A stretch of DNA of 64,000 nucleotides from an uncultured Clostridia bacterium. GTDB taxonomy: Bacteria; Bacillota; Clostridia; Oscillospirales; CAG-272. The notes beneath the pieces were generated by a model. That model searched no databases and was not told where the DNA came from. It worked only from the letters and a program-made list of their open reading frames with translations. Made by a program: the position numbers and the translations under genes. The DNA lies in the NCBI GenBank assembly GCA_944393415.1, contig CALYAD010000032.1, forward strand, positions 2,818 to 66,817. The letters are read 5' to 3'. Below are positions 7,191 through 52,427 of this stretch, one piece after another. How positions within the stretch are numbered: position 1 is the stretch's first letter; every line of letters starts with the position of its first letter.

Positions 7191-8204
7191 ATGGGTAAAA
7201 AAACACTTAGATTTGAAAACGCGCCGGTGATATTCTCCTCGGCGTCGGTAGTGGGTAAAAAAGAAAAGGAGGGGCCGCTCTCCGATTATTTCGATATGCA
7301 CGACCCAAGCGATAAATTCGGGCTTAAGACATTTGAGCAGGCGGAAAGCGAAATGCAGAGAACGGCGCTTAATCTCGCGCTCTCGAAGGCAAAGGCGAGA
7401 CCGGAGGATATTGAAGCGGTATTCGCCGGCGATCTTATGAACCAATGCACAGGCAGCTCGTACGGTCTTGCCAGCTTCGGCATACCTTACTTCGGGCTTT
7501 ACGGCGCGTGCTCGACCGCCGCTGAAGGCCTTATGCTTTCCGCGATGACCGTGGACCGAGGAGTTTTTTTGACAGCGGCTGCGGTATCCTCCTCTCATAA
7601 CAGCTCGGCGGAAAGACAGTTCAGGTTTCCGCTTGAGTACGGCTCGCAGAGACCGCCTACGGCACAGTGGACGGCGACCGCCGCCGCGGCATTCCTCATA
7701 GGCAGAAAGGAGGACGGCAGAAAGGGCTGTGCCGCGATAACCGAGGCCTTGCCGGGAAGGATAGTCGATAAGGGCATAACCGACGCAAATAATATGGGAG
7801 CGGCGATGGCTCCTGCGGCGGCGGATACGCTTCTGCGTTATTTCATCGACGAGGGACATCTGCCGTCCGATTTCGATCTGATAGTTACCGGTGATTTGGG
7901 TCATGAGGGACATTCCATATGTAAAGAGCTTCTTTCCTCTGAGGGACTGGAGCTCGGGGATATATTCAGCGACTGCGGAATAATGCTCTATGACGCGAAG
8001 AAGCAGGACACGCACAGCGGAGGCTCCGGATGCGGCTGCAGCGCCTCGGTAACCGCGGGATATATAATGAAGGGTTTTGCGGACGGTAAATTTAAAAATG
8101 TGCTCCTGATAGGCACAGGGGCGCTTATGAGTCCGTCTTCGGTTCAGCAGGGACTGAGTATTGCGGGTATCGGGCATCTCGTTCACCTGACCTCCGTTTC
8201 GTGA
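7191..8204 (+). CDS. spoVAD: Stage V sporulation protein AD (thiolase-like fold)
   Basis: MGKKTLRFENAPVI...GDLMNQCTGSSYGLASFGIPYFGLYGACST is typical of SpoVAD. Gene order is spoVAC-AD-AE. Confidence 0.9.
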   Translation: MGKKTLRFENAPVIFSSASVVGKKEKEGPLSDYFDMHDPSDKFGLKTFEQAESEMQRTALNLALSKAKARPEDIEAVFAGDLMNQCTGSSYGLASFGIPYFGLYGACSTAAEGLMLSAMTVDRGVFLTAAAVSSSHNSSAERQFRFPLEYGSQRPPTAQWTATAAAAFLIGRKEDGRKGCAAITEALPGRIVDKGITDANNMGAAMAPAAADTLLRYFIDEGHLPSDFDLIVTGDLGHEGHSICKELLSSEGLELGDIFSDCGIMLYDAKKQDTHSGGSGCGCSASVTAGYIMKGFADGKFKNVLLIGTGALMSPSSVQQGLSIAGIGHLVHLTSVS

Positions 8205-8266
8205 GAACGGTTAAGCGCGTAGCGCCGTTCGGCGCAAAAGACGCGGGAAAGGAATAGGTTATTGAT

Positions 8267-8632
8267 ATGGAAATATTTACAGGTTTATTAAAGGCGTTTG
8301 TAGTGGGAGGCTTACTTTGTGTGATCGCCCAGATATTGATAGATAAAACAAAGCTTACTCCGGCAAGAATACTGGTTACCTATGTGGTGGCCGGGGTAGC
8401 TCTTACCGGCTTGGGAGTGTATCAGCCGTTAGTGGATTTTGCCGGAGCCGGAGCGACAGTGCCGCTGACCGGATTTGGGTATACGCTTGCGAAGGGCGTT
8501 GAAAAGGCCGTGACCGAAACAGGGCTGCTGGGAGCCATAACCGGAGGCCTGACCGCGACGGCGGCGGGTATCACGGCGGCCATGACATTCGGATTCATTG
8601 CGTCAGTCGTATTTCCTTCACGCCCAAAATAA
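8267..8632 (+). CDS. spoVAE: Stage V sporulation protein AE (AEb type)
   Basis: LLCVIAQILIDKTKLTPARILV...AGAGATVPLTGFG motif, paralogous to SpoVAC. Confidence 0.85.
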   Translation: MEIFTGLLKAFVVGGLLCVIAQILIDKTKLTPARILVTYVVAGVALTGLGVYQPLVDFAGAGATVPLTGFGYTLAKGVEKAVTETGLLGAITGGLTATAAGITAAMTFGFIASVVFPSRPK

Positions 8633-21565: not shown

Positions 21566-23818
21566 TCAGCCCTTTTTCCAAGTATAGTAACTGTAATCAA
21601 ATCTTAAGTACATTGCAGCGGTCGAGGGATCAGCGAGGTCGCCTGAGGAAATCCAAAGTGAATCGGCTTTCCAGTTTTCCGTGTCCTTGAATGTAACGCT
21701 TTTAAGGCTGGAGCAGCTATAGAACGCCATGTCTCCAATAGAAGCAACGCCGTTTCCGATAGTAACGCTTGTAAGGTTTGTGCAGCCAAAGAACGCTAGA
21801 CTTCCAATAGAAGTAACGCTGTCGGGGATAGTAACACTTGTAAGGTTGGAGCAGCTATAGAACGCCTCGTCGCCAATATAAGTAACGCTGTCTGGAATAG
21901 TAAAGCTGGTATTTGTTTTACCGATGGCATACTGAATTAAAGTTTTTTCGTCTTTAGTGTATAAGCTGCCTTCTATTGATCTGTATGCGCTGTTATTTTC
22001 CGATACAGTGATTTCAGACAGGCTTCTGCAATCAGAGAACGCTCCGGCGCCAATAGAAGCAACACCGTTTCCGATAGTAACGCTTGCAAGGCTGTCGCAG
22101 TCAGAGAACGCTCCGGCGCCAATAGAAGCAACGCTGTCAGGAAAAGTAACGCTTGAAAGGTTGTCGCAGTCAGAGAACGCTCCAACGCCAATAGAAGTAA
22201 CGCTGTCTGAAATAGTAACGCTTGAAAGGTTGTCGCAGTCAGAGAATGTCTCATAGCCAATAGAAGCAACGCCGTTTCCAATAGTAACGCTTGAAAGGTT
22301 GTCACATCCGGAGAACGCCTTCTCTCCAATATAAGTAACACTATCTGGAATAGTAACGCTTGAAAGGCTGTCGCAGCCATAGAACGCGCCGCTGCCAATA
22401 GAAGTAACGCTGTCAGGGATAGTAACGCTTGAAAGGCTGTCGCAGCCATAGAACGCCTTGTCGCCAATAGAAGTAACGCTGTCTGGAATAGTAACGCTTG
22501 TAAGGCTGTCGCAGCCATAGAACGCGTCGCTGCCAATAGAAGTAACGGTGTCAGGGATAGTAACGCCTGTAAGGCTGGAGCAGTCAGAGAACGCGTCGCT
22601 GCCAATAGAAGTAACGCTGTCAGGAATAGTAATGCCTGTAAGGCTGGAGCAGTCAGAGAACGCAGAAGGAGCAATCATACGTGTGCCGGATTTAATGGAA
22701 TAAGAGCCTGATATTGTGTCTTCAGCTTTAATTAAGTATTTTCCTATATACAGTACTCCGTTTTCCCAGTTTCTGTTATTATTGTAATACCCGGTGTTAT
22801 AGAACGCGCTATAGCCGATAGAAGCAACACTGTTTCCTATGGTAATGCTTGAAAGGCTGGAGCAGTCAGAGAACGCGTCGCTGCCAATAGAAGTAACGCT
22901 GTCAGGGATAGTAACGCTTGAAAGGCTGGAGCAGTATGAGAACGCCCGGTCTCCAATAGAAGTAACGCTGTCAGGAATAGTAACGCTTGTAAGACTGTAG
23001 CAGTATGAGAACGCAGAGGGGGTAATCATACGTGTGCCGGATCTAATGGAATAGGAGCCTGATATGTCTTTAGCTTTTATTAAATATTTACCGATATACA
23101 GTACTCCGTTTTCCCAATTACTGTCATTATTGTAATATCCGGTTTGTTCGAACGCGTCGCTGCCAATATAAGTAACGCTGTCAGAAATAGTAACGCTTGT
23201 AAGTCTGGAGCAGCCATAGAAAGCCCAATATCCGATAGAAGTAACGCTGTCGGGAATAGTAACGCTTGTAAGGCCTGATAAAAAGAACGCCTCGTCGCCA
23301 ATAGAAGTGACGCTGTCGGGAATAGTAACGCTTGTAAGTCTGGAGCACTCAGAGAACGTCTCGTCGCCAATATAAGTAACGCCGTCAGGAATAGTAACGC
23401 TTGTAAGGCATCTGCTGTTAGAGAACGCCCCGCTGCCAATATAAGTAACGCTGTCTGGAATAGCAACGCTTGTAAGGCTGGAGCAGTATGAGAACGCCCC
23501 GATGCCAATAGAAGTAACGCCGTCGGGAACAGTAACGCTTGTAAGTCTGGAGCAGTATGAGAAGGCTTCAGCGCCAATAGAAGCAACCGGCTTACCGTTA
23601 TATGTGCTCGGAATAACAATATCGGGGGTATCCTTACATGTGCCGATGCCGCTTACAATGTAATATGTTTCGTCATCGCTTAAGGTATACTCAAGTCCTT
23701 CGGTATATTTATCGTCGGAATTGTCTTGAATGTTATCGTCCTTAATATTACAGGCAAAAAATACACAGATAAGACAACATATAAGCGCAAAAAACAAGAT
23801 TTTTTTCAATACTTTCAT
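21566..23818 (-). CDS. BspA-type leucine-rich-repeat surface lipoprotein
   Basis: About 30 units of SVTIPDSVTSIGxxAFxxCxxLT. Signal peptide plus lipobox MKVLKKILFFALICCLICVFFAC. ATG at 23818 follows AGAAAGGAATGGTCAT. Confidence 0.85.
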   Translation of the reverse strand: MKVLKKILFFALICCLICVFFACNIKDDNIQDNSDDKYTEGLEYTLSDDETYYIVSGIGTCKDTPDIVIPSTYNGKPVASIGAEAFSYCSRLTSVTVPDGVTSIGIGAFSYCSSLTSVAIPDSVTYIGSGAFSNSRCLTSVTIPDGVTYIGDETFSECSRLTSVTIPDSVTSIGDEAFFLSGLTSVTIPDSVTSIGYWAFYGCSRLTSVTISDSVTYIGSDAFEQTGYYNNDSNWENGVLYIGKYLIKAKDISGSYSIRSGTRMITPSAFSYCYSLTSVTIPDSVTSIGDRAFSYCSSLSSVTIPDSVTSIGSDAFSDCSSLSSITIGNSVASIGYSAFYNTGYYNNNRNWENGVLYIGKYLIKAEDTISGSYSIKSGTRMIAPSAFSDCSSLTGITIPDSVTSIGSDAFSDCSSLTGVTIPDTVTSIGSDAFYGCDSLTSVTIPDSVTSIGDKAFYGCDSLSSVTIPDSVTSIGSGAFYGCDSLSSVTIPDSVTYIGEKAFSGCDNLSSVTIGNGVASIGYETFSDCDNLSSVTISDSVTSIGVGAFSDCDNLSSVTFPDSVASIGAGAFSDCDSLASVTIGNGVASIGAGAFSDCRSLSEITVSENNSAYRSIEGSLYTKDEKTLIQYAIGKTNTSFTIPDSVTYIGDEAFYSCSNLTSVTIPDSVTSIGSLAFFGCTNLTSVTIGNGVASIGDMAFYSCSSLKSVTFKDTENWKADSLWISSGDLADPSTAAMYLRFDYSYYTWKKG
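21700..23560 (-). repeat. Tandem ~69-bp coding repeats (LRR units) arranged as two super-repeats
   Basis: Near-identical nucleotide units (…aatagaagtaacgctgtc(a/g)gg(a/g)atagtaacgcttg(t/a)aag…) recur throughout. The NWENGVLYIGKYLIKA block occurs twice. Confidence 0.85.
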
Positions 23819-36898: not shown

Positions 36899-37483
36899 CT
36901 ATGAGTAAGTTTTTATAATTTCCTCAGCGATCTCTCGCTTTGAAACGCAGCGATCCATCGCCTGCTTTTCTATATACCGGTGAGAGTCAGGCTCCGTCAT
37001 TTTCAAATGCTCGATGAGTATCCATTTTGCCCGGTTGACTATGCGGATTTCCTGCATCTTTTCTTCCGTGGACATGGACTTTTTTTCGAACTTTTTCAGT
37101 CTCTCATGCGTTGAGATCATCCAGTCAAGCGCGTGAGAAAAGACGGTTTTTGACGTTGGTCTGGGAAGAACAAAAACCCCGTGCTCAGAGACCTTATCGT
37201 ATGTGGCTGAATAAAGCTCGGCTCGGACTAACAGCAGGGCGGCGGTTGTTTTTATCCCGCACAGATCGATAGCGAAACGGATACCGGTATCGTCGGGAAG
37301 GGGAGAGTTTATTATCACTAAATCGTATGATCTCTCCAAAACAGCTCTTTTTGCCGAGCTTATACTGCTTTCATACCTTACCGGAGAGAATTTCAGGTCA
37401 GGAAGCAGAGCCTGAAGAGATGAATTAAAAACGTCGGAAGAGGATACGGCAAGGACGCTGTAGGCATGTTCCTGTAAGCTCAC
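36899..37483 (-). CDS. ANTAR-domain RNA-binding antiterminator with a degenerate (pseudo-)receiver domain
   Basis: C-terminal ANTAR: IVNRAKWILIEHLKMTEPDSHRYIEKQAMDRCVSKREIAEEII. The N-terminal receiver-like fold has substitutions at its key positions: VSSSD replaces the DD pair, DLVIINSPLPD has Asn at the phospho-acceptor position, and LPRP replaces the KP lysine. Confidence 0.85.
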   Translation of the reverse strand: MSLQEHAYSVLAVSSSDVFNSSLQALLPDLKFSPVRYESSISSAKRAVLERSYDLVIINSPLPDDTGIRFAIDLCGIKTTAALLLVRAELYSATYDKVSEHGVFVLPRPTSKTVFSHALDWMISTHERLKKFEKKSMSTEEKMQEIRIVNRAKWILIEHLKMTEPDSHRYIEKQAMDRCVSKREIAEEIIKTYS

Positions 37484-37520: not shown

Positions 37521-38738
37521 TCAGTTGAGTTTTTTGCCGTATAATTCAATGATCCTCTCCGGGATATAAGCCCGAACGAACTCACTCTTTCGCATTTCAA
37601 GGATCGCCTCGTCAAGGGAGGCGGGTAATTTACCGAACCCTTTAAGCAGCTCTTCACTTGCCTTAAAAAGATTTATGTCGGCGGCGGGCGGAGGAGTTAA
37701 TTTGTTTTTTATTCCGTATAGACCTGCGTAAATCAGCAGAGAGAACGCCAGATACGGATTTGCGGTCGGATCCGGTGAGCGAAGCTCCGCGCGGGGACGG
37801 TCACAGACTGACGCCGGTACTCTCACAAGCTGCGAGCGGTTTTCAGCGGACCAGGAAATGTATGCCGGAGCTTTGTTTATGCCTAAGCGTCTGTAGGAAT
37901 TCTCTCTCGGATTAAAAAATACGGTCATATCGGTAATAAAATGAAGCGTTCCGGCAATTATGTTCGGGAGAAGATCGTCTCCCGACTTGTTTTGGGCGGA
38001 AATATTAATATGAAAACCGTTTCCCGGTCTGTCTTTGAGCGGTTTGGGAGAGAAATCAGCCCACAACCCGTTTCTTCCCGCAACGGTTTTTACGACCGTA
38101 TTAAACGTCATGGCGTTATCCGCGGCGGAGAGAGCGTCGGAATAGCGGAAATCTATCTCGTTCTGACCGGGACCCTCCTCATGATGAGAGCTTTCCGGCC
38201 GTATTCCCATTTGCTCAAGCGTCAGACATATCTCGCGGCGGACGTTTTCGCCCTTGTCGTCCGGCGCGATATCCATATATCCCGCCTCGTCGTATGGCGT
38301 ATTGGTTTTTTCCCCAAGCTCGTTTAGTTTAAACAGGTAGAATTCAAGCTCGGCGCCGAAATAAAAGTCTATACCTTCTTTTTTTGCCTCAGAAACCGCT
38401 TTTATCAGAATACTTCTGGTGTCGCATTCAAATGTTCTTCCGTCGGGGTAAGTGATGCCGCAGAACATTCGGACCACACGTCCATGCTCGGGACGCCACG
38501 GAAGAACGGTAAGCGTGGAGGGATCCGGATGGAGCAGAAGATCGGAGTGGGTTTCGTCTCCGAAGCCTCGGATAGCGGAAGCGTCAAACGCTATTCCATC
38601 CGAAAACGCCCTCTTAAGCTCGCCCGGCATTATGGAAATGTTTTTTTGCTTGCCGTAAATGTCGCAGAAGGCAAGACGGATAAACTTGACGTCCTCTTCC
38701 TTTACGTACTGAAGGACCTCCTCGGCAGTATACTTCAT
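37521..38738 (-). CDS. glnA: Glutamine synthetase, short type I-like
   Basis: Beta-grasp N-terminus (VKFIRLAFCDIYGKQKNISI), the catalytic FGAELEFYLF, and NGFHINIS / SWSAENRSQLVRVP motifs. Confidence 0.85.
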   Translation of the reverse strand: MKYTAEEVLQYVKEEDVKFIRLAFCDIYGKQKNISIMPGELKRAFSDGIAFDASAIRGFGDETHSDLLLHPDPSTLTVLPWRPEHGRVVRMFCGITYPDGRTFECDTRSILIKAVSEAKKEGIDFYFGAELEFYLFKLNELGEKTNTPYDEAGYMDIAPDDKGENVRREICLTLEQMGIRPESSHHEEGPGQNEIDFRYSDALSAADNAMTFNTVVKTVAGRNGLWADFSPKPLKDRPGNGFHINISAQNKSGDDLLPNIIAGTLHFITDMTVFFNPRENSYRRLGINKAPAYISWSAENRSQLVRVPASVCDRPRAELRSPDPTANPYLAFSLLIYAGLYGIKNKLTPPPAADINLFKASEELLKGFGKLPASLDEAILEMRKSEFVRAYIPERIIELYGKKLN

Positions 38739-38790: not shown

Positions 38791-39513
38791 TCAGTTTGCC
38801 ACGTACATTTGCTTGTATGGATTTCTGCTGTCCGGAGAAACGACGGTAAAGGGGAAATCCAAAATTTTATTTTTATCATATCCGAAGAGCAGACAGTATT
38901 CGGATATGTATTCGGAAATATGCTTTATGTCCTCGGGTTCTGCGTGTCTGGCGTGAACCTGACTTGGAAATCTGATATCCCTGCAGTCAGAGCGGAGATA
39001 CATTTTTCCGCCGTGCATTCCGGTGCAGGGAAAGTTGCTGACGATAGGCTTGTCGTGTGAATTAAGACCGAGAACCACGATTATCCCGCCTGCCTGGTAT
39101 TCACCTAAAAAGCTGCCCGCCGTTCCGCCGATGACTAAGACGGGGATCTTTTCCCTGTATTCTTTCATATGTATACCGGCGCGGTAGCCGGCGTTGCCTT
39201 TTACGTATATTCTTCCGCCGCGCATGGCGTATCCGGCGGCATCGCCGATATTTCCGTCAACTATTATACAGCCGTCGTTCATGGTATCGCCGACGGCGTC
39301 CTGGGCGTTTCCTTTGACTCTCAGCTCGGCTCCGTTGAGGTAAGCGCCGAGGGCGTTTCCGGGAGTACCCTCTATAAAAATATTTCTTTTCCCCATACCG
39401 GCGGCGATAAAGCGTTGTCCGAGACAACCGGTGATCTGACAGTCCCCCTCGGTATTTCTGAGCGCCTTGTTTAATTCGGCAAAATCAAGATTTTTCGCGT
39501 CAATACAATTCAT
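38791..39513 (-). CDS. Glutamate synthase GXGXG-domain subunit (GltB3-like)
   Basis: Repeated beta-helix GxxGxxxG units (GTPGNALGAYLNGAELRVKGNAQDAVGDTMNDGCIIVDGNIGDAAGYAMRGGRIYVKGNAGYRAG). Confidence 0.85.
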   Translation of the reverse strand: MNCIDAKNLDFAELNKALRNTEGDCQITGCLGQRFIAAGMGKRNIFIEGTPGNALGAYLNGAELRVKGNAQDAVGDTMNDGCIIVDGNIGDAAGYAMRGGRIYVKGNAGYRAGIHMKEYREKIPVLVIGGTAGSFLGEYQAGGIIVVLGLNSHDKPIVSNFPCTGMHGGKMYLRSDCRDIRFPSQVHARHAEPEDIKHISEYISEYCLLFGYDKNKILDFPFTVVSPDSRNPYKQMYVAN

Positions 39514-40760
39514 TATACCACACCTCCCAGCTTTTTTCTACGGGTATTTTGTGAATACGCGTATAAAGTCGGATATTTTTTCAAAAGCTCAAAATCAACG
39601 GTATCGAGCGGGATTCTTTCTCGGATAAGCGCCGTATAAATTCCCGCTCTCTCTACATCGCCTATCATTATATATCCTGTAAGTACGCCGTTTTTTGTAA
39701 AGAGGCGCTTAAGCGTCCCGTTACCTTTTTCCTCGTACATTTTTCCGCCTTCCTCTTCGCCGAAATAGCTCCCGGCTGTGATCGCGTGCAAGCCGAAGAA
39801 GCCGATTGAGTTCATGGGTATAGCCTTGTCAAATTTTGCTTGGCCTCCTGCCATATTGACGCCTGCGCAATAGCCCTGCATATATGCGTTCGGTAGAATG
39901 GCGAGCACACGTTTCCCGCCGAGCGAGATATCCTCGCCCTCCGTGCAGTCTCCCGCTGCATAAACGTTCTTAACGGAGGTCCGCATTTTTTCGTTAACAA
40001 TGATTCCTCTGTTTACCTCTCCTCCGATATCCTTTACAAGAGCGGTGTTGGCGCGTACTCCTACTACCATGACAAGGACGTCAAATTCCACACAGGCGCC
40101 GCTTTTCATGATGGCTCTGCTTCCGATGAATTCGGCGGCGGTATCACCGAGCATAAAGCTGATACCGTTTTCCTCAAGCCGCGCCTGCATTATCTTTGCG
40201 CAATCATCGTCCAGAATACTTGATAGGACTCTTGCGGCAAGGTCGCATACCGTTATATCCTTTACCCGGCCGCAAATTCCCTCGGCGCATTTAAGTCCGA
40301 TCAGTCCCGCGCCTATAATGAGAACGCGGGTATTCCTGTCAATAACCTTTTCAAGCTCCAGGGAATCGTCAAGCGTAATAAAGGTGAATTTGTTTTTTAC
40401 CGTTTCAAGCCCCTTTATCGGAGGAATAAAAGGAGAGGAGCCGGAGGCGACGCAGACCGAGGTAAAGGGAATCTTGCAGCCGTCGTTTAGGGCTACGTTT
40501 TTTGTTTCAGGATCGATCCCGACCGCTTTTTTTCCATAAATTACTTTACAGCCGTTTGAGTCGTAGAAATCGGTCTTTCGGTAATTCATCTTCGCAAGCT
40601 CTGTTTTCCCCTGAAGATAGTAAGAGATCAGGGGACGGCAGTACACGGGATGGTTTTCTTCTGAGACGACGGTTACGGCCGAGCTTTTATCAACGCTTCG
40701 GATGCCCTCGATGCAGCCGGCCGCGGCGACGCCGTTTCCGATTATAACATAATCAGCCAT
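39513..40760 (-). CDS. FAD/NAD(P)-dependent pyridine-nucleotide oxidoreductase (probable electron-input subunit)
   Basis: Two Rossmann GxGxxG motifs (IIGNGVAAAG; IIGAGLIGLKCAE) and a late AAGDC motif. ATG at 40760 follows AGAAAGGAATGGTCAT. Confidence 0.8.
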   Translation of the reverse strand: MADYVIIGNGVAAAGCIEGIRSVDKSSAVTVVSEENHPVYCRPLISYYLQGKTELAKMNYRKTDFYDSNGCKVIYGKKAVGIDPETKNVALNDGCKIPFTSVCVASGSSPFIPPIKGLETVKNKFTFITLDDSLELEKVIDRNTRVLIIGAGLIGLKCAEGICGRVKDITVCDLAARVLSSILDDDCAKIMQARLEENGISFMLGDTAAEFIGSRAIMKSGACVEFDVLVMVVGVRANTALVKDIGGEVNRGIIVNEKMRTSVKNVYAAGDCTEGEDISLGGKRVLAILPNAYMQGYCAGVNMAGGQAKFDKAIPMNSIGFFGLHAITAGSYFGEEEGGKMYEEKGNGTLKRLFTKNGVLTGYIMIGDVERAGIYTALIRERIPLDTVDFELLKKYPTLYAYSQNTRRKKLGGVV

Positions 40761-40925
40761 TGTTATGACCATTCCTTTCTTTGCCGTATAACGGCAGTCA
40801 TTTTTATAGAACTATCAAAAACTTTTCTTTAGCGAGATACGATGCCTTCAGGCATATTGAACTGTTGTGAGGACTTTTTTCGGGGTGTCTGAGAAGACTC
40901 CGAAATTCCGAGACATAGCCGCGGT

Positions 40926-41357
40926 TTACTCTCTTTCCTCATACACTATGGCTTTGTTGGGACAGCCCTTCACGCAGGCAGGTTCGCCGCAGGAATTTTG
41001 CAGGCAAAGCTCGCATTTCTGCATTACGCCGTCCTCTCCGGTAGCTAACGCACCGAACGGACACACCATAATACAGGTCAGACACCCAACGCACCTATCA
41101 CGGTCTATATGGATAACCCCGTCCTTTGTAAAGAGCGCCCCGGCGATACAGCTTTTGACACAAATCGGGTCTGAGCAGTGGCGGCAGGATACCGCGTAGG
41201 AAATTCTGTCGTCGCCTTCTATATGTATTCTCGGGTAAATTTGTTTACCCTTAAGCGCCGCTGCCATATCCTTAAGTCCGGAATTAGCGAAAGCGCAGTT
41301 ATATTCGCATAGGTGACATCCGAGACACCATTTTTCATTGACAAATACCCGTTTCAT
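40926..41357 (-). CDS. 4Fe-4S dicluster ferredoxin-domain protein
   Basis: CLGCHLCEYNC, CRHCSDPICVKSC, CVGCLTCIMVCP and CELC...C cysteine clusters. ATG at 41357 follows GGGGGA. Confidence 0.8.
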   Translation of the reverse strand: MKRVFVNEKWCLGCHLCEYNCAFANSGLKDMAAALKGKQIYPRIHIEGDDRISYAVSCRHCSDPICVKSCIAGALFTKDGVIHIDRDRCVGCLTCIMVCPFGALATGEDGVMQKCELCLQNSCGEPACVKGCPNKAIVYEERE

Positions 41358-41480
41358 ATCAATCCCCCATGCTGCCTTCAGGCAGCTCAAACAGATATAA
41401 AAATTTTTGTGTTTCGCACTTGCGAAAAATTCAAGCGTGAAAACATCTGCGTTCCGACATTATGTATTCAAGCCGGCGTT

Positions 41481-42986
41481 TTACTCTCCGGCGTGAGAGA
41501 TGCCGAGTATTTCAAGCTCCTTTGAAGTAAGTCCTACGCCGCGGAGCATCAGACGATTGCCGCGCAGAGCTTCTATGGAATTTATTCCCATGCCTCCCAT
41601 CATCTCCTTGATCTCATGCTTCCATGCGTTCATAAGATTGACAAGCCGCGCGCTTCCTATATCCGGATTCAGTCTTTTGACAAGCTCGGGGCGTTGGGTT
41701 GCTATTCCCCAGTTGCATTTACCGCTTTGGCAGGTGCGGCAGAGATGACATCCGAGAGCCAGCAGGGCCGCCGTAGCCACATAACACGCGTCGGCGCCGA
41801 GAGCGATCGCCTTGACCACGTCGGAGGCTGAGCGGATGCTTCCGCCTACGACAAGGGAAACGCTGTTGCGTATACCTTCGTCGCGCAGACGCTGATCCAC
41901 GGCGGCGAGAGCAAGCTCTATCGGGATACCAACGTTGTCTCGGATCCTGGTAGGTGCCGCACCAGTACCGCCGCGGAAGCCGTCAATAGCGATTATATCC
42001 GCGCCGCTTCGGGCTATTCCGCTGGCGATAGCGGCGATGTTGTGGACCGCCGCTACCTTTACGATAACGGGCTTTTTATACTCTGTAGCCTCCTTGAGAG
42101 AATAAACGAGCTGGCGGAGATCCTCAATCGAATAGATATCGTGGTGCGGGGCGGGAGAAATCGCGTCAGAGCCTTCCGGTATCATACGGGTTCGCGACAC
42201 ATCTCCGACTATTTTAGTTCCGGGAAGATGTCCGCCGATTCCCGGCTTTGCGCCCTGTCCCATTTTTATCTCAACGGCGGCGCCCGCCATAAGATAGTCC
42301 TCGTAAACGCCGAAGCGTCCGGAGGCTACCTGAACAATGGTATTTTTACCATAGCGGTAAAAGTCTTCATGAAGGCCGCCCTCACCGGTGTTATAAAAAA
42401 TACCGGTTTCCGTTGCCGCCCTTGCAAGACTTTCGTGGGCGTTATAGCTGATCGAACCGTAGCTCATAGCGGAGAACATAACGGGCATCGCAAGCTCAAG
42501 CTGAGGGGGAAGCCCGCATTTCAGTTTACCTTTCTCATCTCTCTGAACCTTATCGGGTTTTTTCCCAAGAAACACCTTGGTTTCCATCGGCTCGCGCAGA
42601 GGGTCGATGGGTGGGTTTGTGACCTGAGAGGCGTTTATAAGAATCTTATCCCAATATACGGGCAGCGGATTGGGATTTCCCATTGAGGATAGGAGAACGC
42701 CTCCGCTGTTTGCCTGCTTGTAGATCTCGTTTATCGTGCTGCTATGCCAGTTGGCGTTCTCGCGGAGCGTGCAGTTGCTTTTGACTATTTTCAGCGCTCT
42801 TGTCGGACAGAGAGATACACATCTCTGGCAGTTGACGCATTTGCTTTCGTCGCTTTGCATAAGCTTACGGTCTTCGTCATATGTGTGTACCTCGTTTGCG
42901 CATTGCCTTTCACATACGCGGCAGGCGATGCACCTGCCGTCATTTCTGACGACCTCAAATTCCGGATATATGAAATCAACGCTCAT
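41481..42986 (-). CDS. Glutamate synthase FMN-binding subunit (GltB2-like) with an N-terminal 2x[4Fe-4S] domain
   Basis: CIACRVCERQC / CVNCQRCVSLCP, then the GltS FMN core (MSYGSISYNAHESLA...GEGG...KMGQGAKPGIGGHLPG...ISPAPHHDIYSIEDL...DGFRGGTGAAP). The start overlaps the upstream stop (TGATG). Confidence 0.88.
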   Translation of the reverse strand: MSVDFIYPEFEVVRNDGRCIACRVCERQCANEVHTYDEDRKLMQSDESKCVNCQRCVSLCPTRALKIVKSNCTLRENANWHSSTINEIYKQANSGGVLLSSMGNPNPLPVYWDKILINASQVTNPPIDPLREPMETKVFLGKKPDKVQRDEKGKLKCGLPPQLELAMPVMFSAMSYGSISYNAHESLARAATETGIFYNTGEGGLHEDFYRYGKNTIVQVASGRFGVYEDYLMAGAAVEIKMGQGAKPGIGGHLPGTKIVGDVSRTRMIPEGSDAISPAPHHDIYSIEDLRQLVYSLKEATEYKKPVIVKVAAVHNIAAIASGIARSGADIIAIDGFRGGTGAAPTRIRDNVGIPIELALAAVDQRLRDEGIRNSVSLVVGGSIRSASDVVKAIALGADACYVATAALLALGCHLCRTCQSGKCNWGIATQRPELVKRLNPDIGSARLVNLMNAWKHEIKEMMGGMGINSIEALRGNRLMLRGVGLTSKELEILGISHAGE

Positions 42987-44080
42987 CAGAAACACCCCTC
43001 CCTTACATTTATTATAACAGGCTCTCCGCCGGCGGGAGCCCAAACGTTTTCCGCGTTCGGTTCCATTGCGCGGATCGACGCTTCTTCGCTCGCTATATAT
43101 ACCTTATTATCTTTTTCTCCGACGACCATCGAACGCAGCTTAAGACGGTCGTTTAACGCCATAAGTCCGCCGGTAAAGCCGAGAATTATGGAGAAGGGAC
43201 CGGTTACAAGCAGGCTCGGAAACATGGTGCGCAGATAAATATGCTTTTCTTTATCCTCAAGGTCGGTTTTGTTTTCTATTGTACTCCAGAAGGGCGCCGC
43301 GATCACGCTTGCCGCTTCGCCGAGCGTCAGTCCCTGAACACGTACAAGATAATCGATAATGTAAGTAATGACCTCAGTATCGGTCTGGAGATTACATTTA
43401 TAACCGAACATTTCTATGTATCTTCTGTTTGCGTCATAGGAAGATATCTCTCCGTTGTGGACTATGGAATTATCGAGCAGGGTAAACGGATGCGCCCCTC
43501 CCCACCAACCAGGCGTATTGGTCGGGTATCTGCCGTGAGCCGTCCAGCAATAGCCTTCGTATTCATCTAATCTGTAAAACTCTCCGACATCCTCCGGGAA
43601 GCCGACCGCTTTAAAAGTTCCCATGTTTTTCCCGCTGGAAAAAACATACGCGCCGGGAATCTCGGTATTTATTTTCATAACCGTTCTGACTACAAATTCC
43701 TTTTCATCCAGCTGCATGGACGCAAGAACGGATTTCAGCGGCGTTACAAAATATCTCCATATTATAGGCTCGTCAGTGATAGCCGGCAGCTTCCTTGTGG
43801 GTATTATCTCCGACTTCACAAGCTCGAATCTTTCCTTTAAGAATTCCTCGCAGCTTTTTCTTGTGGCTCGCTGGTCGAAGAAAAAATGTAACGCGTATAA
43901 ATCCTTGTATTCAGGATAGATGCCATACGCGGCAAAGCCGCCTCCGAGACCGTTGGAGCGGTCGTGCATAGGCTTCATCGCGTCGATTATTTGCCTGCCG
44001 GATATTCTTTCGCCGTCCCTGGCGATCACGGCGGCGATCGCGCATCCGGACGGAATACGTATCTGACCTTCTTTCAACAT
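42986..44080 (-). CDS. Class II (Ntn) glutamine amidotransferase subunit of glutamate synthase (GltB1-like)
   Basis: A pro-peptide then the catalytic Cys (MLKEGQIRIPSGCAIAAV), with HGRYPTNTPGWWGGAHPF and VHNGEISSY motifs. Start reassigned to 44080, because codons 1-29 of ORF 42986..44167 coincide with a leader hairpin and terminator. Confidence 0.8.
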   Translation of the reverse strand: MLKEGQIRIPSGCAIAAVIARDGERISGRQIIDAMKPMHDRSNGLGGGFAAYGIYPEYKDLYALHFFFDQRATRKSCEEFLKERFELVKSEIIPTRKLPAITDEPIIWRYFVTPLKSVLASMQLDEKEFVVRTVMKINTEIPGAYVFSSGKNMGTFKAVGFPEDVGEFYRLDEYEGYCWTAHGRYPTNTPGWWGGAHPFTLLDNSIVHNGEISSYDANRRYIEMFGYKCNLQTDTEVITYIIDYLVRVQGLTLGEAASVIAAPFWSTIENKTDLEDKEKHIYLRTMFPSLLVTGPFSIILGFTGGLMALNDRLKLRSMVVGEKDNKVYIASEEASIRAMEPNAENVWAPAGGEPVIINVREGCF

Positions 44081-44098
44081 ACTGATTACCAAGCCTTT

Positions 44099-44167
44099 CG
44101 TAAAATAAAAAGGAAAGGCGCTCACAGCCGGCAGCACTTGCCGTAACTGATGAACGCCTTTGCTCAT
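44099..44167 (-). promoter_or_regulatory. 5' leader of the GOGAT-glnA-ANTAR operon: AAAGGC-hexaloop hairpin overlapping an intrinsic terminator
   Basis: RNA: AUGAGC[AAAGGC]GUUCAU (44167-44150). Terminator: AAAGGCGUUCA (44161-44151) pairs with UGAGCGCCUUU (44124-44114), 11 bp, followed by CCUUUUUAUUUU. Confidence 0.6.
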
Positions 44168-44175
44168 TTAAGATT

Positions 44176-44204
44176 ATTATACCACGTTAAGCGCGGTTTG
44201 TCAA
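44176..44204 (-). promoter_or_regulatory. Consensus sigma-A promoter of the GOGAT operon
   Basis: On the minus strand: TTGACA (44204-44199), 17 nt, TATAAT (44181-44176). Confidence 0.75.
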
Positions 44205-44264
44205 CCTGTTTTGAAGAAAAAGCTCAGGCTTTGCAATTTTTTTCAAAAAAAATTGAAAAAGGGG

Positions 44265-44293
44265 TTGACAAAACGGTTTTTATGGTGTATAAT
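44265..44293 (+). promoter_or_regulatory. Consensus sigma-A promoter of gdhA
   Basis: TTGACA (44265-44270), 17 nt, TATAAT (44288-44293). Confidence 0.75.
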
Positions 44294-44302
44294 ACAGCAT
44301 GT

Positions 44303-44360
44303 AAAGGCAAAGGCGTCTTTTAGGTTAACACCTATAGTCGTTTTTGCCTTTTCTTTTATT
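44303..44360 (+). promoter_or_regulatory. gdhA 5' leader: AAAGGC-hexaloop hairpin, second hexaloop hairpin, and an overlapping intrinsic terminator
   Basis: P1 AAAGGC[AAAGGC]GUCUUU (44303-44320). P2 UAGG[UUAACA]CCUA (44321-44334). Alternative 13-bp terminator: AAAGGCAAAGGCG (44303-44315) pairs with CGUUUUUGCCUUU (44339-44351), followed by UCUUUUAUUU. Confidence 0.6.
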
Positions 44361-44374
44361 TGAAATTAAACTAA

Positions 44375-45721
<1,347 letters not shown>

Positions 45722-45735
45722 TAAATAAAATACTG

Positions 45736-45800
45736 TAAATAACAATGATAAAGGCAAAGGCGTCTTTAATGTTCGGCATTAGGGGCGTCTTCCTTATTTA
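45736..45800 (+). promoter_or_regulatory. Third copy of the AAAGGC-hexaloop hairpin, upstream of type III GS
   Basis: AAAGGC[AAAGGC]GUCUUU at 45750-45767, a 19-nt identity with the gdhA leader. It is followed by AAUG[UUCGG]CAUU and a 9-bp alternative stem (45757-45765 with 45783-45791), then CCUUAUUUAU. A -10-like TAAATA at 45736 keeps the same spacing as in gdhA. Confidence 0.45.
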
Positions 45801-45906
45801 TAAAAACAAAACAATAAATTTTCGGTACTTGGGTACGTACATCGGGATTATTATTTAAAAACAGCACAATTAGCCGTATAGGCGAAGGAAAGGAAGGAGC
45901 ATAATT

Positions 45907-48003
45907 ATGGCAACGGTAACAGAAGAATTCGGAAGTATGGTTTTTGACGACAGAGTTATGCGCGCAACGCTTCCCGCTAAGGTCTACGCTTCTCTCAAAA
46001 AGACTATAGATGAGGGCAAGGAGCTTGATCTTACTGTGGCGAACGCGGTCGCCTCCGCTATGAAGGATTGGGCGGTCGCGCGCGGAGCTACACATTATAC
46101 ACATTGGTTCCAACCGCTGACGGGAGTGACCGCGGAAAAGCACGACAGCTTTATTACGCCGGCTCCGGACGGCGGGGTGATCATGGAGTTTTCCGGCAAA
46201 GAGCTGATCAAGGGTGAGCCGGACGCCTCATCCTTCCCATCCGGCGGTCTGCGCGCAACCTTTGAGGCAAGAGGTTATACCGCTTGGGATCCCACCTCTT
46301 ACGCGTTTATAAAGGGCAAGACCCTTTGTATTCCCACCGCTTTCTGTTCCTACGGCGGAGAGGCGCTGGATAAGAAAACTCCCCTGCTTCGTTCGATGGA
46401 GGCTCTTAACGTGCAGGCGCTCCGTATACTTAAGCTGTTCGGGAACGATACGGTAAAGCGCGTCACGACCTCGGTAGGTCCGGAACAGGAATATTTCCTT
46501 GTTGACAGAGAAATGTACAACAAACGCAAGGACCTTATCTATACCGGACGCACACTGTTCGGAGCAAAGCCTCCGAAGGGACAGGAGATGGACGATCATT
46601 ACTTCGGTGTAATCAAGCCCCGGGTGGCAGCGTTTATGGAGGATCTCAATGAAGAGCTGTGGAAGCTGGGTATCTTGGCTAAGACGGAGCATAACGAGGT
46701 TGCCCCCGCTCAGCACGAGCTTGCGCCGATATATACCACCACCAATATCGCGACCGATCACAACCAGCTGACCATGGAGATAATGCAAAAGGTAGCGTCC
46801 AGACACGGACTTGTTTGTCTGCTTCATGAAAAACCCTTCGCGGGGGTAAATGGAAGCGGAAAGCACAACAACTGGTCGATTGGCACCGACTCGGGTCAGA
46901 ACCTGCTTTCCCCCGGGGAGACGCCTTACGAGAACGCTCAGTTTCTGCTGTTTCTGTGCGCGGTTATAAAGGCGGTCGATGATTATCAGGATCTTCTCAG
47001 GATCGCTGTCGCCACTGCCGGCAATGACCATCGTCTGGGAGCAAACGAAGCTCCTCCCGCCGTAGTATCGGTGTTTCTCGGCGACGAGCTGAACGCGGTT
47101 CTGGAGGCTATTGAAAATGATACCCCATACAGCGGTGCGGAAAGAAAGCAGATGAAGCTTGGTTCGGATGTGCTTCCGAAGTTTAACCGGGATACCACGG
47201 ACCGTAACCGTACCTCCCCGTTTGCGTTTACGGGCAACAAGTTCGAGTTCCGTATGCTCGGTTCCTCCAACAGTATAGCCTGCGCCAATATAATGCTGAA
47301 CGCGGCTGTGGCCGAATCTCTTAAGATATATTCGGATGCTCTTGAGAGCGCCGATGATTTTGAGACGGCGCTTCATGAGCTGATCAGGGATACGATAAAA
47401 GCTCACAAGAGAATTATTTTTAACGGCAACGGTTACGACGATTCCTGGATAAAAGAGGCGACCGAAAAGAGAGGACTTTGCAATTACCGTACTACCGCGG
47501 ACTGTATGCCTCATCTGCTTGACGATAAGAACGTGAAAATGCTTACCTCTCACAAGGTGTATTCCGAGGCGGAGTTAAGATCCAGATGCGAGATCATGTT
47601 GGAGAACTACTGCAAAACTGTTGTAATTGAGGCAAATACGATGGTGGATATGGTGAAGAAGCAGATTCTGCCCGCTGTCTCTGGTTATGCAAGTGAGCTT
47701 GCGGAAACTATAGGTAAAAAACTGTCGCTGGGCAGTGATATTTCCTGCGGATATGAAAAGGCGACCGTTAAAAAGCTGTCGCTGCTTGCAGATCAGATCG
47801 CGGAATATACTTCCGAGCTCGAGGCGGCCTTACTGAAGCTCAAGACTTCGGACGATATCTGCGAGGAGGCATATGCTATCCGTGATACGGTGCTTGGTGA
47901 AATGAGCAAGCTGCGCATAGTTTGCGACGAGGCGGAAACAGCTACCTCTGAAAAATACTGGCCTTTTCCGACCTACGGCGAATTGCTGTTCGGGGTCAAA
48001 TAG
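45907..48003 (+). CDS. glnN: Glutamine synthetase, type III
   Basis: 698 aa. N-terminus [20 protein letters not shown]..., plus [15 protein letters not shown] and [16 protein letters not shown], are typical of GSIII. Confidence 0.9.
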
Positions 48004-51713: not shown

Positions 51714-52427
51714 ATGCAAAAAGGAAAACAACTTTATGAGGGGAAAGCAAAGAGGGTATATGAAACCGACGACCCCGAGCTTCTTATAGTGGACTATAAG
51801 GACGACGCGACCGCATTCAACGGACTTAAGAAGGGAACAATCGTCGGCAAGGGCGTCATCAATAACAGAATGAGCAATTTACTGATGCAAAGACTGGAAA
51901 AGGCGGGCATACCCACACATTTTGTAAAAGAGCTCAGTGAACGCGAGACGCTCGTAAAAAAGGTGTCAATCGTTCCGCTTGAGGTCATTATCAGGAATAT
52001 TGCCGCGGGCTCGTTTTCCAAGCGATACGGTGTTGACGAGGGCGTGGTGTTTGCTTCTCCCACGATCGAATTCTCCTATAAGAACGACGATCTCGGAGAC
52101 CCGCTGATAAACGAGTATCACGCGTATGCGCTAAAGCTGGCGACTCCGGAGGAGGTAGATACCATAAAAAAGTATTCCTTTGAGATAAATGAAGAGCTGA
52201 AGGCGTTCTGGAAGGAATGCGGAGTTACTCTTGTGGATTTCAAGCTCGAATTCGGCAGGCTGAAGGATGGGAGTATAGTGCTTGCCGATGAGATCAGTCC
52301 CGATACATGTCGGCTTTGGGACAGTAAAACGGGGGAAAAGCTTGATAAGGACCGATTCCGCCGAGATCTCGGCGGTGTAGAGGACGCGTACGCGGAGGTT
52401 ATGAAGCGTCTGACTGAGCATCTTTAA
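51714..52427 (+). CDS. purC: Phosphoribosylaminoimidazole-succinocarboxamide (SAICAR) synthase
   Basis: LYEGKAKRVYETDD...LIVDYKDDATAFNG. ATG at 51714 follows GAAAGGAAT. Confidence 0.9.
   Translation: MQKGKQLYEGKAKRVYETDDPELLIVDYKDDATAFNGLKKGTIVGKGVINNRMSNLLMQRLEKAGIPTHFVKELSERETLVKKVSIVPLEVIIRNIAAGSFSKRYGVDEGVVFASPTIEFSYKNDDLGDPLINEYHAYALKLATPEEVDTIKKYSFEINEELKAFWKECGVTLVDFKLEFGRLKDGSIVLADEISPDTCRLWDSKTGEKLDKDRFRRDLGGVEDAYAEVMKRLTEHL

Follow-up and report, generated by a model that had tools for sequence, protein, structure and literature searches.

How are two divergent transcription units for nitrogen assimilation, each driven by a perfect consensus promoter, brought under control? The question is raised by a stretch of 64,000 nt from an uncultured Clostridia bacterium (CAG-272; assembly GCA_944393415.1, contig CALYAD010000032.1), which we call the window. 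A promoter on the minus strand drives a seven-gene operon consisting of five split glutamate synthase (GOGAT) genes, a glutamine synthetase (GS) gene and a gene for an ANTAR-domain protein. A promoter on the plus strand drives gdhA, which encodes an NADP-specific glutamate dehydrogenase (GDH); the gene of a type III glutamine synthetase (GSIII) comes next. An earlier reading made from the letters without database searches (the sequence-only reading) had claimed that both transcripts start within a few nucleotides of an 18-nt hairpin with an identical AAAGGC loop, and that each hairpin competes with an intrinsic terminator. The arrangement is real, goes beyond chance and is conserved across several orders. 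We put at roughly 0.7 the probability that the window holds three attenuators of transcription, all belonging to one regulon for nitrogen assimilation and all set by the ANTAR protein; this reading is drawn from sequence.

Leaders of the window

The two promoters lie back to back and point outward, as the sequence-only reading had described. Each matches TTGACA-17-TATAAT at 12 of 12 positions (44204..44176, minus strand, for the GOGAT/GS/ANTAR operon; 44265..44293, plus strand, for gdhA). The -10 elements end 8 and 9 nt, respectively, before the hairpins, which therefore start about 0-3 nt after the transcription start. At the 5' end of the GOGAT operon the hairpin is AUGAGC[AAAGGC]GUUCAU, termed class A (44167..44150, minus strand; -4.3 kcal/mol when folded alone). 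At the 5' end of the gdhA transcript it is AAAGGC[AAAGGC]GUCUUU, termed class B (44303..44320, plus strand; -3.5 kcal/mol alone). Both were thus found where the earlier reading had them. A third copy, also class B and identical in sequence to the gdhA copy, lies past the gdhA stop codon and before the GSIII gene (45750..45767, plus strand). Between the two leader hairpins, three of the six stem pairs differ by double changes, and the loop-adjacent G.U and C-G pairs are unchanged; this count of compensatory differences had also been made before. The G.U pair is formed by 44154/44163, 44307/44316 and 45754/45763 in the three copies.

The core GCAAAGGCGU is identical in all three hairpins. The exact 10-mer GCAAAGGCGT occurs three times in 64 kb, against an expectation of ~0.12 (2 x 64000 / 4^10). 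A covariance model (R2) was trained on 112 units from other genomes and contained zero window sequence. When run on the 64 kb, it returned exactly three sites: the GSIII copy (35.5 bits, E 4e-9), the gdhA copy (34.9 bits, E 6e-9) and the GOGAT copy (31.5 bits, E 9e-8). The next hit had 12.5 bits (E 0.31). No further hairpin copy was found in the window by the model with filters off; a site at 51846 is a partial core match inside another region. Rfam gave zero window matches at gathering thresholds and, at permissive thresholds, only sub-threshold noise in 44000..46000.

In all three leaders the minimum-free-energy (MFE) fold is the terminator. The GOGAT leader terminator (44102..44165, minus strand) has an 11-bp base stem (44161..44151 with 44124..44114), a tip at 44149..44125 and the U-tract CCUUUUUAUUUU at 44113..44102. 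The gdhA leader terminator (44303..44361, plus strand) has a 13-bp base stem (44303..44315 with 44339..44351), a tip at 44321..44334 and the U-tract UCUUUUAUUU at 44352..44361. For these two, folding agreed with the stem lengths and tracts that had been read by eye. The GSIII leader terminator (45757..45801, plus strand) consists of a 16-bp stem (45757..45791) and the tail CCUUAUUUAU at 45792..45801. The MFE was -26.7 kcal/mol (z = -3.6) for the gdhA leader and -32.7 kcal/mol (z = -3.8) for the GOGAT leader. A comparison of the energies of the two folds, which the sequence-only reading had proposed as a check, showed the terminator to be the stronger in each case. The terminator fold versus the fold with the hairpin forced gave -30.6 versus -14.5 kcal/mol for GOGAT, -23.2 versus -7.3 kcal/mol for gdhA and -22.1 versus -8.6 kcal/mol for GSIII, an advantage of 14-16 kcal/mol.

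The hairpin and the terminator share bases, and the claim that the two folds are mutually exclusive stands. The earlier description of the shared bases needs correction for gdhA. There, the terminator 5' arm (AAAGGCAAAGGCG) consists of the hairpin 5' arm, the loop and the first base of the 3' arm, not of the loop and the 3' arm. This register is possible because the hairpin 5' arm repeats the loop sequence. In the predicted folds the tip loop is UAAC in gdhA (UUAACA with a stem one pair shorter), AGUGC in GOGAT and UUC in GSIII (UUCGG with a shorter stem).

A good promoter for the GSIII leader hairpin was absent from 45690..45750 (plus strand). The best candidate, TTGACG-16-CATAGT, matches 9 of 12 positions and ends 32 nt upstream, in contrast to the 7-10 nt seen in other units. 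GSIII is probably transcribed by read-through from gdhA, and hence through two attenuators in series. A TnrA-like box with one mismatch (TGTAAATAACAATGATA, 45734..45750) adjoins the same hairpin, probably by chance.

Hairpin-terminator units in other genomes

A scan of a one-genome-per-species collection revealed at least 588 places encoding relatives of the ANTAR protein. From these we sampled 80 loci (80 genomes) with 10-kb flanks, about 1.0 Mb. A unit was defined as a hairpin with an overlapping terminator, the terminator being required; ~124 units were obtained, of which 115 distinct ones were used for covariation analysis. The search of related genomes for the hairpin, which had been suggested earlier, yielded units at GOGAT/GS, gdhA and GSIII genes. 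Among the carriers are two cultivable organisms, Allobaculum stercoricanis DSM 13633 (L064) and [Eubacterium] hominis (L027). The 10-mer core GCAAAGGCGU occurred 79 times in the surveyed loci, against an estimated ~2. When the degenerate core GCAANGRYGU was the sole criterion, 108 of 174 matches had all four outer pairs, compared with 1-13 in slid controls.

Stem class follows the downstream gene. Class A stems (AUGAGC/GUUCAU) head GOGAT or GS/ANTAR operons, and class B stems (AAAGGC/GUCUUU) head GSIII and gdhA; the commonest downstream gene was GSIII (56 of 139 candidate units). Occasional further targets in other genomes are purC, purA, pyrG and a gene with a PPDK_N domain. These units, often tandem, precede purC (SAICAR synthetase), purA (adenylosuccinate synthetase), pyrG (CTP synthase) and the gene of an 856-aa PPDK_N protein; by locus, they are L034 2591(-), L037 1621(-) and L064 734(-); L035 1227(-); L058 12296(-); and L058 and L072 1095(+). 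With purC, purA and pyrG among its members, the regulon would extend to nitrogen-consuming nucleotide synthesis.

Stem pairing was kept in 97.8% of cells across the 115 distinct units. Both-sided changes occurred at four of the six stem pairs (121 cells). The covariation score was 0.518, versus 0.225 after shuffling (0 of 500 shuffles reached it) and at most 0.16 with the partner slid. Rarer stems are paired as well: GAAGGC/GUCUUC, UAAGGC/GUCUUA, AAGAGC/GUUCUU and UGAAGC/GUUUCA. The sequence-only reading had held that orthologous leaders without the hairpin, or with non-compensatory substitutions, would speak against it; instead, pairing is kept and four of six pairs covary. The closing C-G and the adjacent G.U pair were constant in the 115 distinct units, a set selected for G.U. 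A scan run without this requirement gave 132 hairpins with a typical loop, of which 115 carried G.U at this place. The G.U pair could be a recognition feature or a means of keeping the hairpin weak. The loop is near-invariant across orders of Clostridia; its variants are AAGGGC, AAUGGC, AACGGC, AAAGAC, AAAGGU, AAUGAC and AAUGGU, and the consensus over the ~124 units is AANGRY.

The overlap with the terminator is equally general. At least 118 of 124 units have the hairpin 3' arm base-paired within the terminator helix, and 116 of 124 have a U-tract with at least 6 U in 9 nt. On average, the terminator fold had -21.3 kcal/mol and the fold with a forced hairpin -9.8 kcal/mol. Upstream of 68 units (31 of 36 in class A, 37 of 87 in class B) there is a near-perfect consensus promoter whose end is 7-10 nt from the hairpin; the hairpin of these units therefore sits right at the 5' end of the RNA. 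The other class B units, about half of the class, are promoterless and are either the second of a tandem pair or inside operons, as at 45750. Tandem units are usually 65-89 nt apart, and the promoter is conserved at the first units of class B leaders.

Two loci showed rearrangements. In L071, identical class B leaders at 8453(-) and 6339(-) lie on either side of a DDE transposase gene (PF01609); it seems that the GSIII leader was duplicated when an insertion sequence integrated into it or next to it. In L030, the class A terminator (7386..7460) is a near-perfect 70-nt palindrome with the hairpin motif on both strands (7390+, 7453-). The GOGAT genes of this locus (7505..8486) were matched only as short fragments, which suggests that they are pseudogenes.

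In the definition of Ramesh et al. (2012, PMC3369931), an ANTAR substrate comprises two hexaloop hairpins in tandem, joined by a short variable linker. A second hairpin was looked for here. The scan was permissive (stems of at least 3 bp, ANNGNN loop), took in the sequence on either side of the hairpin and was compared with shuffled controls. Downstream, 14 of 124 units had a second hairpin of this kind (9.0 +/- 2.6 by chance); upstream, 8 of 124 did (13.4 +/- 3.4 by chance). The promoter spacing leaves no room for an upstream hairpin. The sole other hairpin is the terminator tip, whose apical loops of 3-10 nt are unconserved. With a second loop that has A in first and G in fourth place (A1, G4) only at chance level, the units do not follow the classical dual-hairpin plan. 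The sequence-only reading had seen a second hairpin in both window leaders and called it unconserved. The lack of conservation was borne out; the hairpin itself is merely the terminator tip, in all three leaders.

The first hexaloop does fit the ANTAR pattern. A1 and G4 are present in AAAGGC in three of three window copies and in AANGRY over the ~124 units, and the units agree in sequence with the single-hexaloop minimal motif as defined in PMC8934654. According to that work, an ANTAR dimer is never in contact with more than one hexaloop at once, and the minimal motif was given as a single hexaloop (Walshe et al. 2022, PMC8934654). The earlier suggestion of a variant recognition mode was therefore overstated: what differs is the architecture of the attenuator, not recognition. 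Single-hexaloop transcription attenuators are absent from the account of Walshe et al. (2022, PMC8934654), who called for a bioinformatic study of single sites.

The ANTAR protein, its paired synthetase and the locus

The last gene of the GOGAT operon (36899..37483, minus strand) encodes a 194-aa protein whose ANTAR domain, recognized earlier from the translation, was confirmed by Pfam (PF03861, E 2.9e-16). We propose it as the hairpin-binding antiterminator. It has a receiver fold, a coiled coil and a C-terminal ANTAR domain. The structure model had a mean predicted local distance difference test score (pLDDT) of 79, and its top fold matches were Rv1626 (E 1.9e-10), RNA-bound EutV (1.1e-7) and AmiR (1.3e-6). 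The phospho-acceptor Asp of Rv1626 (DLVIMD) aligns with Asn59 (DLVIIN), which is invariant among 21 relatives. The receiver is thus a pseudo-receiver, and phosphorylation is not the signal. A protein search gave relatives in 5266 clusters; thousands are close, in Clostridia.

EutV residues K143, K147, K149, E160 and Y164 align with R147, R151, K153, E164 and H168 of the 194-aa protein, with a numbering offset of 2 deduced from the residue names in PMC8934654. R147, K153, E164 and H168 are invariant in alignment A1. His168 aligns with Tyr164 of EutV, which stacks on G4; AmiR likewise has His. The published ANTAR seed alignment consists of 17 sequences, 9 of them given as text. Its eut/nasF loops are AAUGGC, AACGGC, AAAGGC, AAAGAC and AAAGAA, each closed by C-G, and AAAGGC itself is the P2 loop of Enterococcus faecalis eutA and Klebsiella oxytoca nasF. 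Loop and C-G closure therefore match proven targets, and the hairpin carries a canonical ANTAR hexaloop. This agrees with the sequence-only reading, which had described ANTAR loops as having A in the first and G in the fourth position.

The gene immediately upstream of that for the ANTAR protein encodes, in 79 of 79 loci, a GSI-alpha-type glutamine synthetase; GOGAT genes are dispensable and are absent from about fifteen loci. The window synthetase (37521..38738, minus strand; 405 aa; Pfam Gln-synt_C and Gln-synt_N) matched GSI-alpha structures at about E 1e-102 and retains the catalytic motifs; it scored below the cut-off of TIGR00653 (curated GlnA). The ANTAR-paired synthetase is short in all loci, at 392-405 aa versus about 445 aa for GSI-alpha enzymes. 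About 20-30 C-terminal residues are missing, there is a ~12-residue deletion after HINIS, and the metal and substrate motifs are kept. Because the genomes also encode GSIII, the short synthetase may have specialised. The strict pairing suggests a regulatory role and, if so, a new coupling of metabolism to an RNA-binding regulator. It suggests, without proving, that the synthetase supplies the nitrogen signal to the ANTAR protein.

The tight linkage of the GS gene also bears on whether the switch, real in itself, is set by another trans-acting factor (GS, another RNA-binding protein or a small RNA) while the ANTAR protein has its targets elsewhere. We consider this unlikely. The GS gene is linked to the units as tightly as the ANTAR gene, the ANTAR-hairpin link is correlative and the second hexaloop of classical ANTAR substrates is absent. 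However, the AANGRY loop with C-G closure is exactly that of proven ANTAR substrates, the hexaloop-contact residues of EutV are kept and one hexaloop is enough for an ANTAR dimer. A Pfam scan of the proteins of the operon revealed no RNA-binding domain besides ANTAR.

The remaining genes of the locus fit the functions named above. The split glutamate synthase (GOGAT block 38791..44080, all on the minus strand) comprises, by Pfam, GATase_2 (42986..44080), Glu_synthase (41481..43043), Fer4 (40926..41390), Pyr_redox_2 (39513..40772) and GXGXG (38791..39513) genes, and this order is repeated in most related loci. On the plus strand are gdhA (44387..45721; Pfam ELFV_dehydrog; NCBIfam NF006929, 755 bits, above the cut-off) and glnN, the GSIII gene (45907..48003; Pfam GSIII_N, E 1e-80). 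The listed open reading frame 42986..44167 begins at the AUG with which the hairpin 5' arm (AUGAGC) opens and keeps to the frame of the first GOGAT gene all the way across the leader. It extends across the leader only because a stop codon is absent there; most likely, translation truly starts with the ATG at 44080. Gene callers are at risk of annotating the GATase subunit 29 aa too long (44080..44167, minus strand).

We also looked for the TnrA/GlnR operator (TGTNAN7TNACA, a 17-bp inverted repeat). No exact site was found near the three leaders, and the one-mismatch matches at 44254 and 45734 were no better than many elsewhere in the window. The count of this pattern in the window was raised by the 17-mer TGTCAGGGATAGTAACG, which recurs with near variants at 22135, 22411, 22549, 22900, 22969 and 23179 (21800..23200, plus strand). 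The spacings are multiples of 69 nt, which points to a 23-aa tandem repeat within a coding region.

The proposed switch, its rivals and known systems

We propose that, by default, a transcript starts at a strong, probably constitutive, sigma-A promoter, or arrives by read-through, and would stop 45-70 nt downstream at the intrinsic terminator. The terminator 5' arm would hold the loop and one arm of the 18-nt hairpin, which lies at about +1 to +3 of the RNA. On induction, an active ANTAR dimer would bind the emerging C[AAAGGC]G hexaloop and prevent the weak hairpin (-3.5 to -4.3 kcal/mol) from opening. The closed hairpin would block the base stem of the terminator, and the leftover tip would end at least 11 nt from the U-tract, too far to terminate. 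With the base stem blocked and the tip distant, polymerase would read into the GOGAT operon, gdhA and glnN. The single hexaloop would act as the classical P2 (antitermination) hairpin, the P1 (recruitment) hairpin being absent. The GSI-alpha synthetase may report nitrogen status and control the ANTAR protein by direct contact. Because the operon of the regulator is among the targets, autoregulation would be positive. Tandem units, and the gdhA and GSIII units in series, would multiply the regulatory ratio. We infer that the ANTAR protein binds the hairpin and that the regulon is on under nitrogen limitation.

A simpler account would deny regulation. The 5' hairpin would stabilise the mRNA, hairpins at the 5' end of transcripts being a known type of stabiliser, and the terminators would be leaky constitutive dampers, or insulators between divergent genes, for which promoters of 12/12 consensus might have a need. 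We regard this as quite improbable. It leaves unexplained the near-invariant loop across orders of Clostridia, the hairpin bases shared with the terminator, the tandem units with their 65-89 nt spacing, and the restriction of the units to nitrogen-assimilating or nitrogen-consuming genes beside an ANTAR gene.

The covariation data also speak to the DNA level. If the 18-mer were a DNA operator for a repressor at +1 to +20, with incidental RNA folds, its place just past the -10 element would be typical and its partly directly repeated sequence (AAAGGCAAAGGC) would be accounted for. However, the stem covaries with pairing retained, the invariant G.U would become a mismatched G:T at the DNA level, promoters are missing from about half of the class B units (tandem second units or in-operon units such as 45750), and a terminator overlaps at every unit. 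No TnrA/GlnR box was found at the leaders. The preference of the sequence-only reading for an RNA structure over a DNA operator has therefore been upheld by the survey (97.8% pairing; 0.518 versus 0.225 shuffled), and we give an operator very little credence. Least credible of all is ribosome-mediated attenuation at class A units, in which AUGAGC would start a near-leaderless peptide (MSKGVH...) whose translation controls the terminator: an AUG or GUG does occur at about +1 to +3 in 37 of 37 class A hairpins, that of the window in frame with the first GOGAT gene, but the peptide varies from 7 to >36 codons with conservation ending at the hairpin, it lacks Gln, Glu and Asn codons, the class B, AAGAGC and UGAAGC stems have the same architecture without a start codon, and an A-to-G change at position 1 keeps pairing too (A-U to G.U).

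Several points weigh against attenuation by the ANTAR protein as we propose it. The link between protein and RNA is one that we infer from co-occurrence and from resemblance to other ANTAR systems, and all 80 surveyed loci were chosen through the ANTAR gene, so that the sample holds only genomes with such a gene. The covariation cells come mostly from two ancient stem classes and represent few independent events. The U-tract of the GSIII leader (CCUUAUUUAU) is weak. With a single hexaloop, the protein would have to bind within no more than about 20-40 nt of transcription, and single-hexaloop sites are expected mainly where polymerase imposes no time constraint (Walshe et al. 2022, PMC8934654). 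Joint positive control of gdhA and GS/GOGAT is unusual in comparison with enteric bacteria. We deduce a role of the synthetase as sensor from gene adjacency alone; with its catalytic motifs kept, it may be only an enzyme.

A broader proposal is speculative, and we rate it below an even chance. The pseudo-receiver ANTAR protein and the short GSI-alpha synthetase might together form a post-initiation master regulator of nitrogen metabolism in many gut and rumen Clostridia, possibly across Oscillospirales, Lachnospirales, Christensenellales and some Erysipelotrichales. Promoters would be constitutive, the synthetase would sense glutamine or 2-oxoglutarate, and single hexaloops would decide read-through. 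If true, this would be an RNA-level counterpart of the Bacillus GS-TnrA/GlnR system and the first natural case in which one hexaloop without a recruitment hairpin suffices for co-transcriptional antitermination. The possible part of glutamine synthetase as the sensor of an RNA-binding regulator is the most interesting aspect.

Little is understood of nitrogen control in the dominant Clostridia of the gut and rumen; to our knowledge, they are without the well-studied NtrBC and TnrA paradigms. The units would define a compact regulon (GS/GOGAT, GDH and GSIII; in some genomes purC, purA and pyrG) with an 18-nt signature that can be searched for in any genome. They offer ~120 natural single ANTAR hexaloops that compete directly with terminators, and they bear on the question of Walshe et al. 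(2022) whether single hexaloops are functional, even under the time pressure of polymerase. A strong promoter joined to a 60-nt switch would also be a compact nitrogen-responsive expression module for anaerobes.

The element may further account for the phenotypes seen when glnA or gogat is deleted in engineered Clostridium thermocellum. In this species, the same kind of gene cluster (Clo1313_2030-2036) changes expression as a unit (PMC4676874), and deletion of gogat raises GDH activity (PMC9888227). GDH and GOGAT transcripts drop together. Deletion of the type I GS reportedly "deregulates nitrogen metabolism", in the wording of a cited title. These observations fit a shared regulon, though they were made on other material than this element.

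Among the closest known systems are EutV/EutW and the eut leaders of E. faecalis (PMC3369931, PMC8934654). The hexaloop is the same C[AANGRN]G with A1 and G4 (AAAGGC being the eutA P2 loop), there is the same overlap of hairpin and intrinsic terminator, and several attenuators, including that of the regulator's own operon, belong to one regulon. The regulator has the same receiver-like domain, coiled coil and ANTAR domain with conserved RNA-contact residues. However, each eut terminator has two hexaloop hairpins, whereas here there is one and P1 is absent. The hairpin here sits right at the 5' end of its transcript, and G.U replaces the Watson-Crick pair of the proven eut/nasF hairpins. The regulator here is non-phosphorylatable (Asn) and has no adjacent histidine kinase gene, and the targets are GS, GOGAT and GDH genes rather than those of ethanolamine utilisation.

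AmiR, which controls the amidase operon of Pseudomonas aeruginosa, resembles the 194-aa protein in other respects. This ANTAR protein of 196 aa has a pseudo-receiver that is not phosphorylated and His at the G4-stacking position, and it acts on a leader terminator, as we propose here. It is controlled not by a kinase but by the co-encoded ligand-sensing AmiC, and we propose an analogous partner. AmiC is an amide sensor resembling periplasmic binding proteins, whereas the partner here would be a glutamine synthetase. Similarity to AmiR is low outside the ANTAR domain (E 0.15, domain alone), and the amiE leader has been modelled as a dual hairpin. NasS-NasT provides a further analogy of partner switching for the proposed control of the ANTAR protein by GS.

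ANTAR control of nitrogen genes in Clostridia has been predicted before. Sites upstream of GS, GOGAT, amt and P-II genes were predicted for many Clostridia and Peptococcaceae by Ramesh et al. (2012, PMC3369931, Table S2), so the regulatory idea is not new. The regulons described there have, as here, an ANTAR gene beside GS and split GOGAT genes and sites that overlap terminators, many or tandem in some genomes. Those sites were described by the dual-hairpin model, in contrast to the single hairpin here, and some may belong to the single-hairpin set though read as dual. The genes gdhA, purC, purA and pyrG are not among the targets in the portion of Table S2 consulted. We found no description of single-hexaloop ANTAR attenuators or of a GS-ANTAR interaction in the literature searched. 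For NitR of Clostridium acetobutylicum, the published account, as cited in PMC4676874, invokes an antisense RNA.

The proposed partnership finally recalls Bacillus subtilis, in which GS, likewise of the GSI-alpha type, conveys nitrogen status to TnrA and GlnR by direct contact. The analogy is functional only. TnrA and GlnR are DNA-binding proteins of the MerR type that act at initiation, whereas the regulator proposed here would bind RNA and act after initiation, through a GS-ANTAR contact that is hypothetical.

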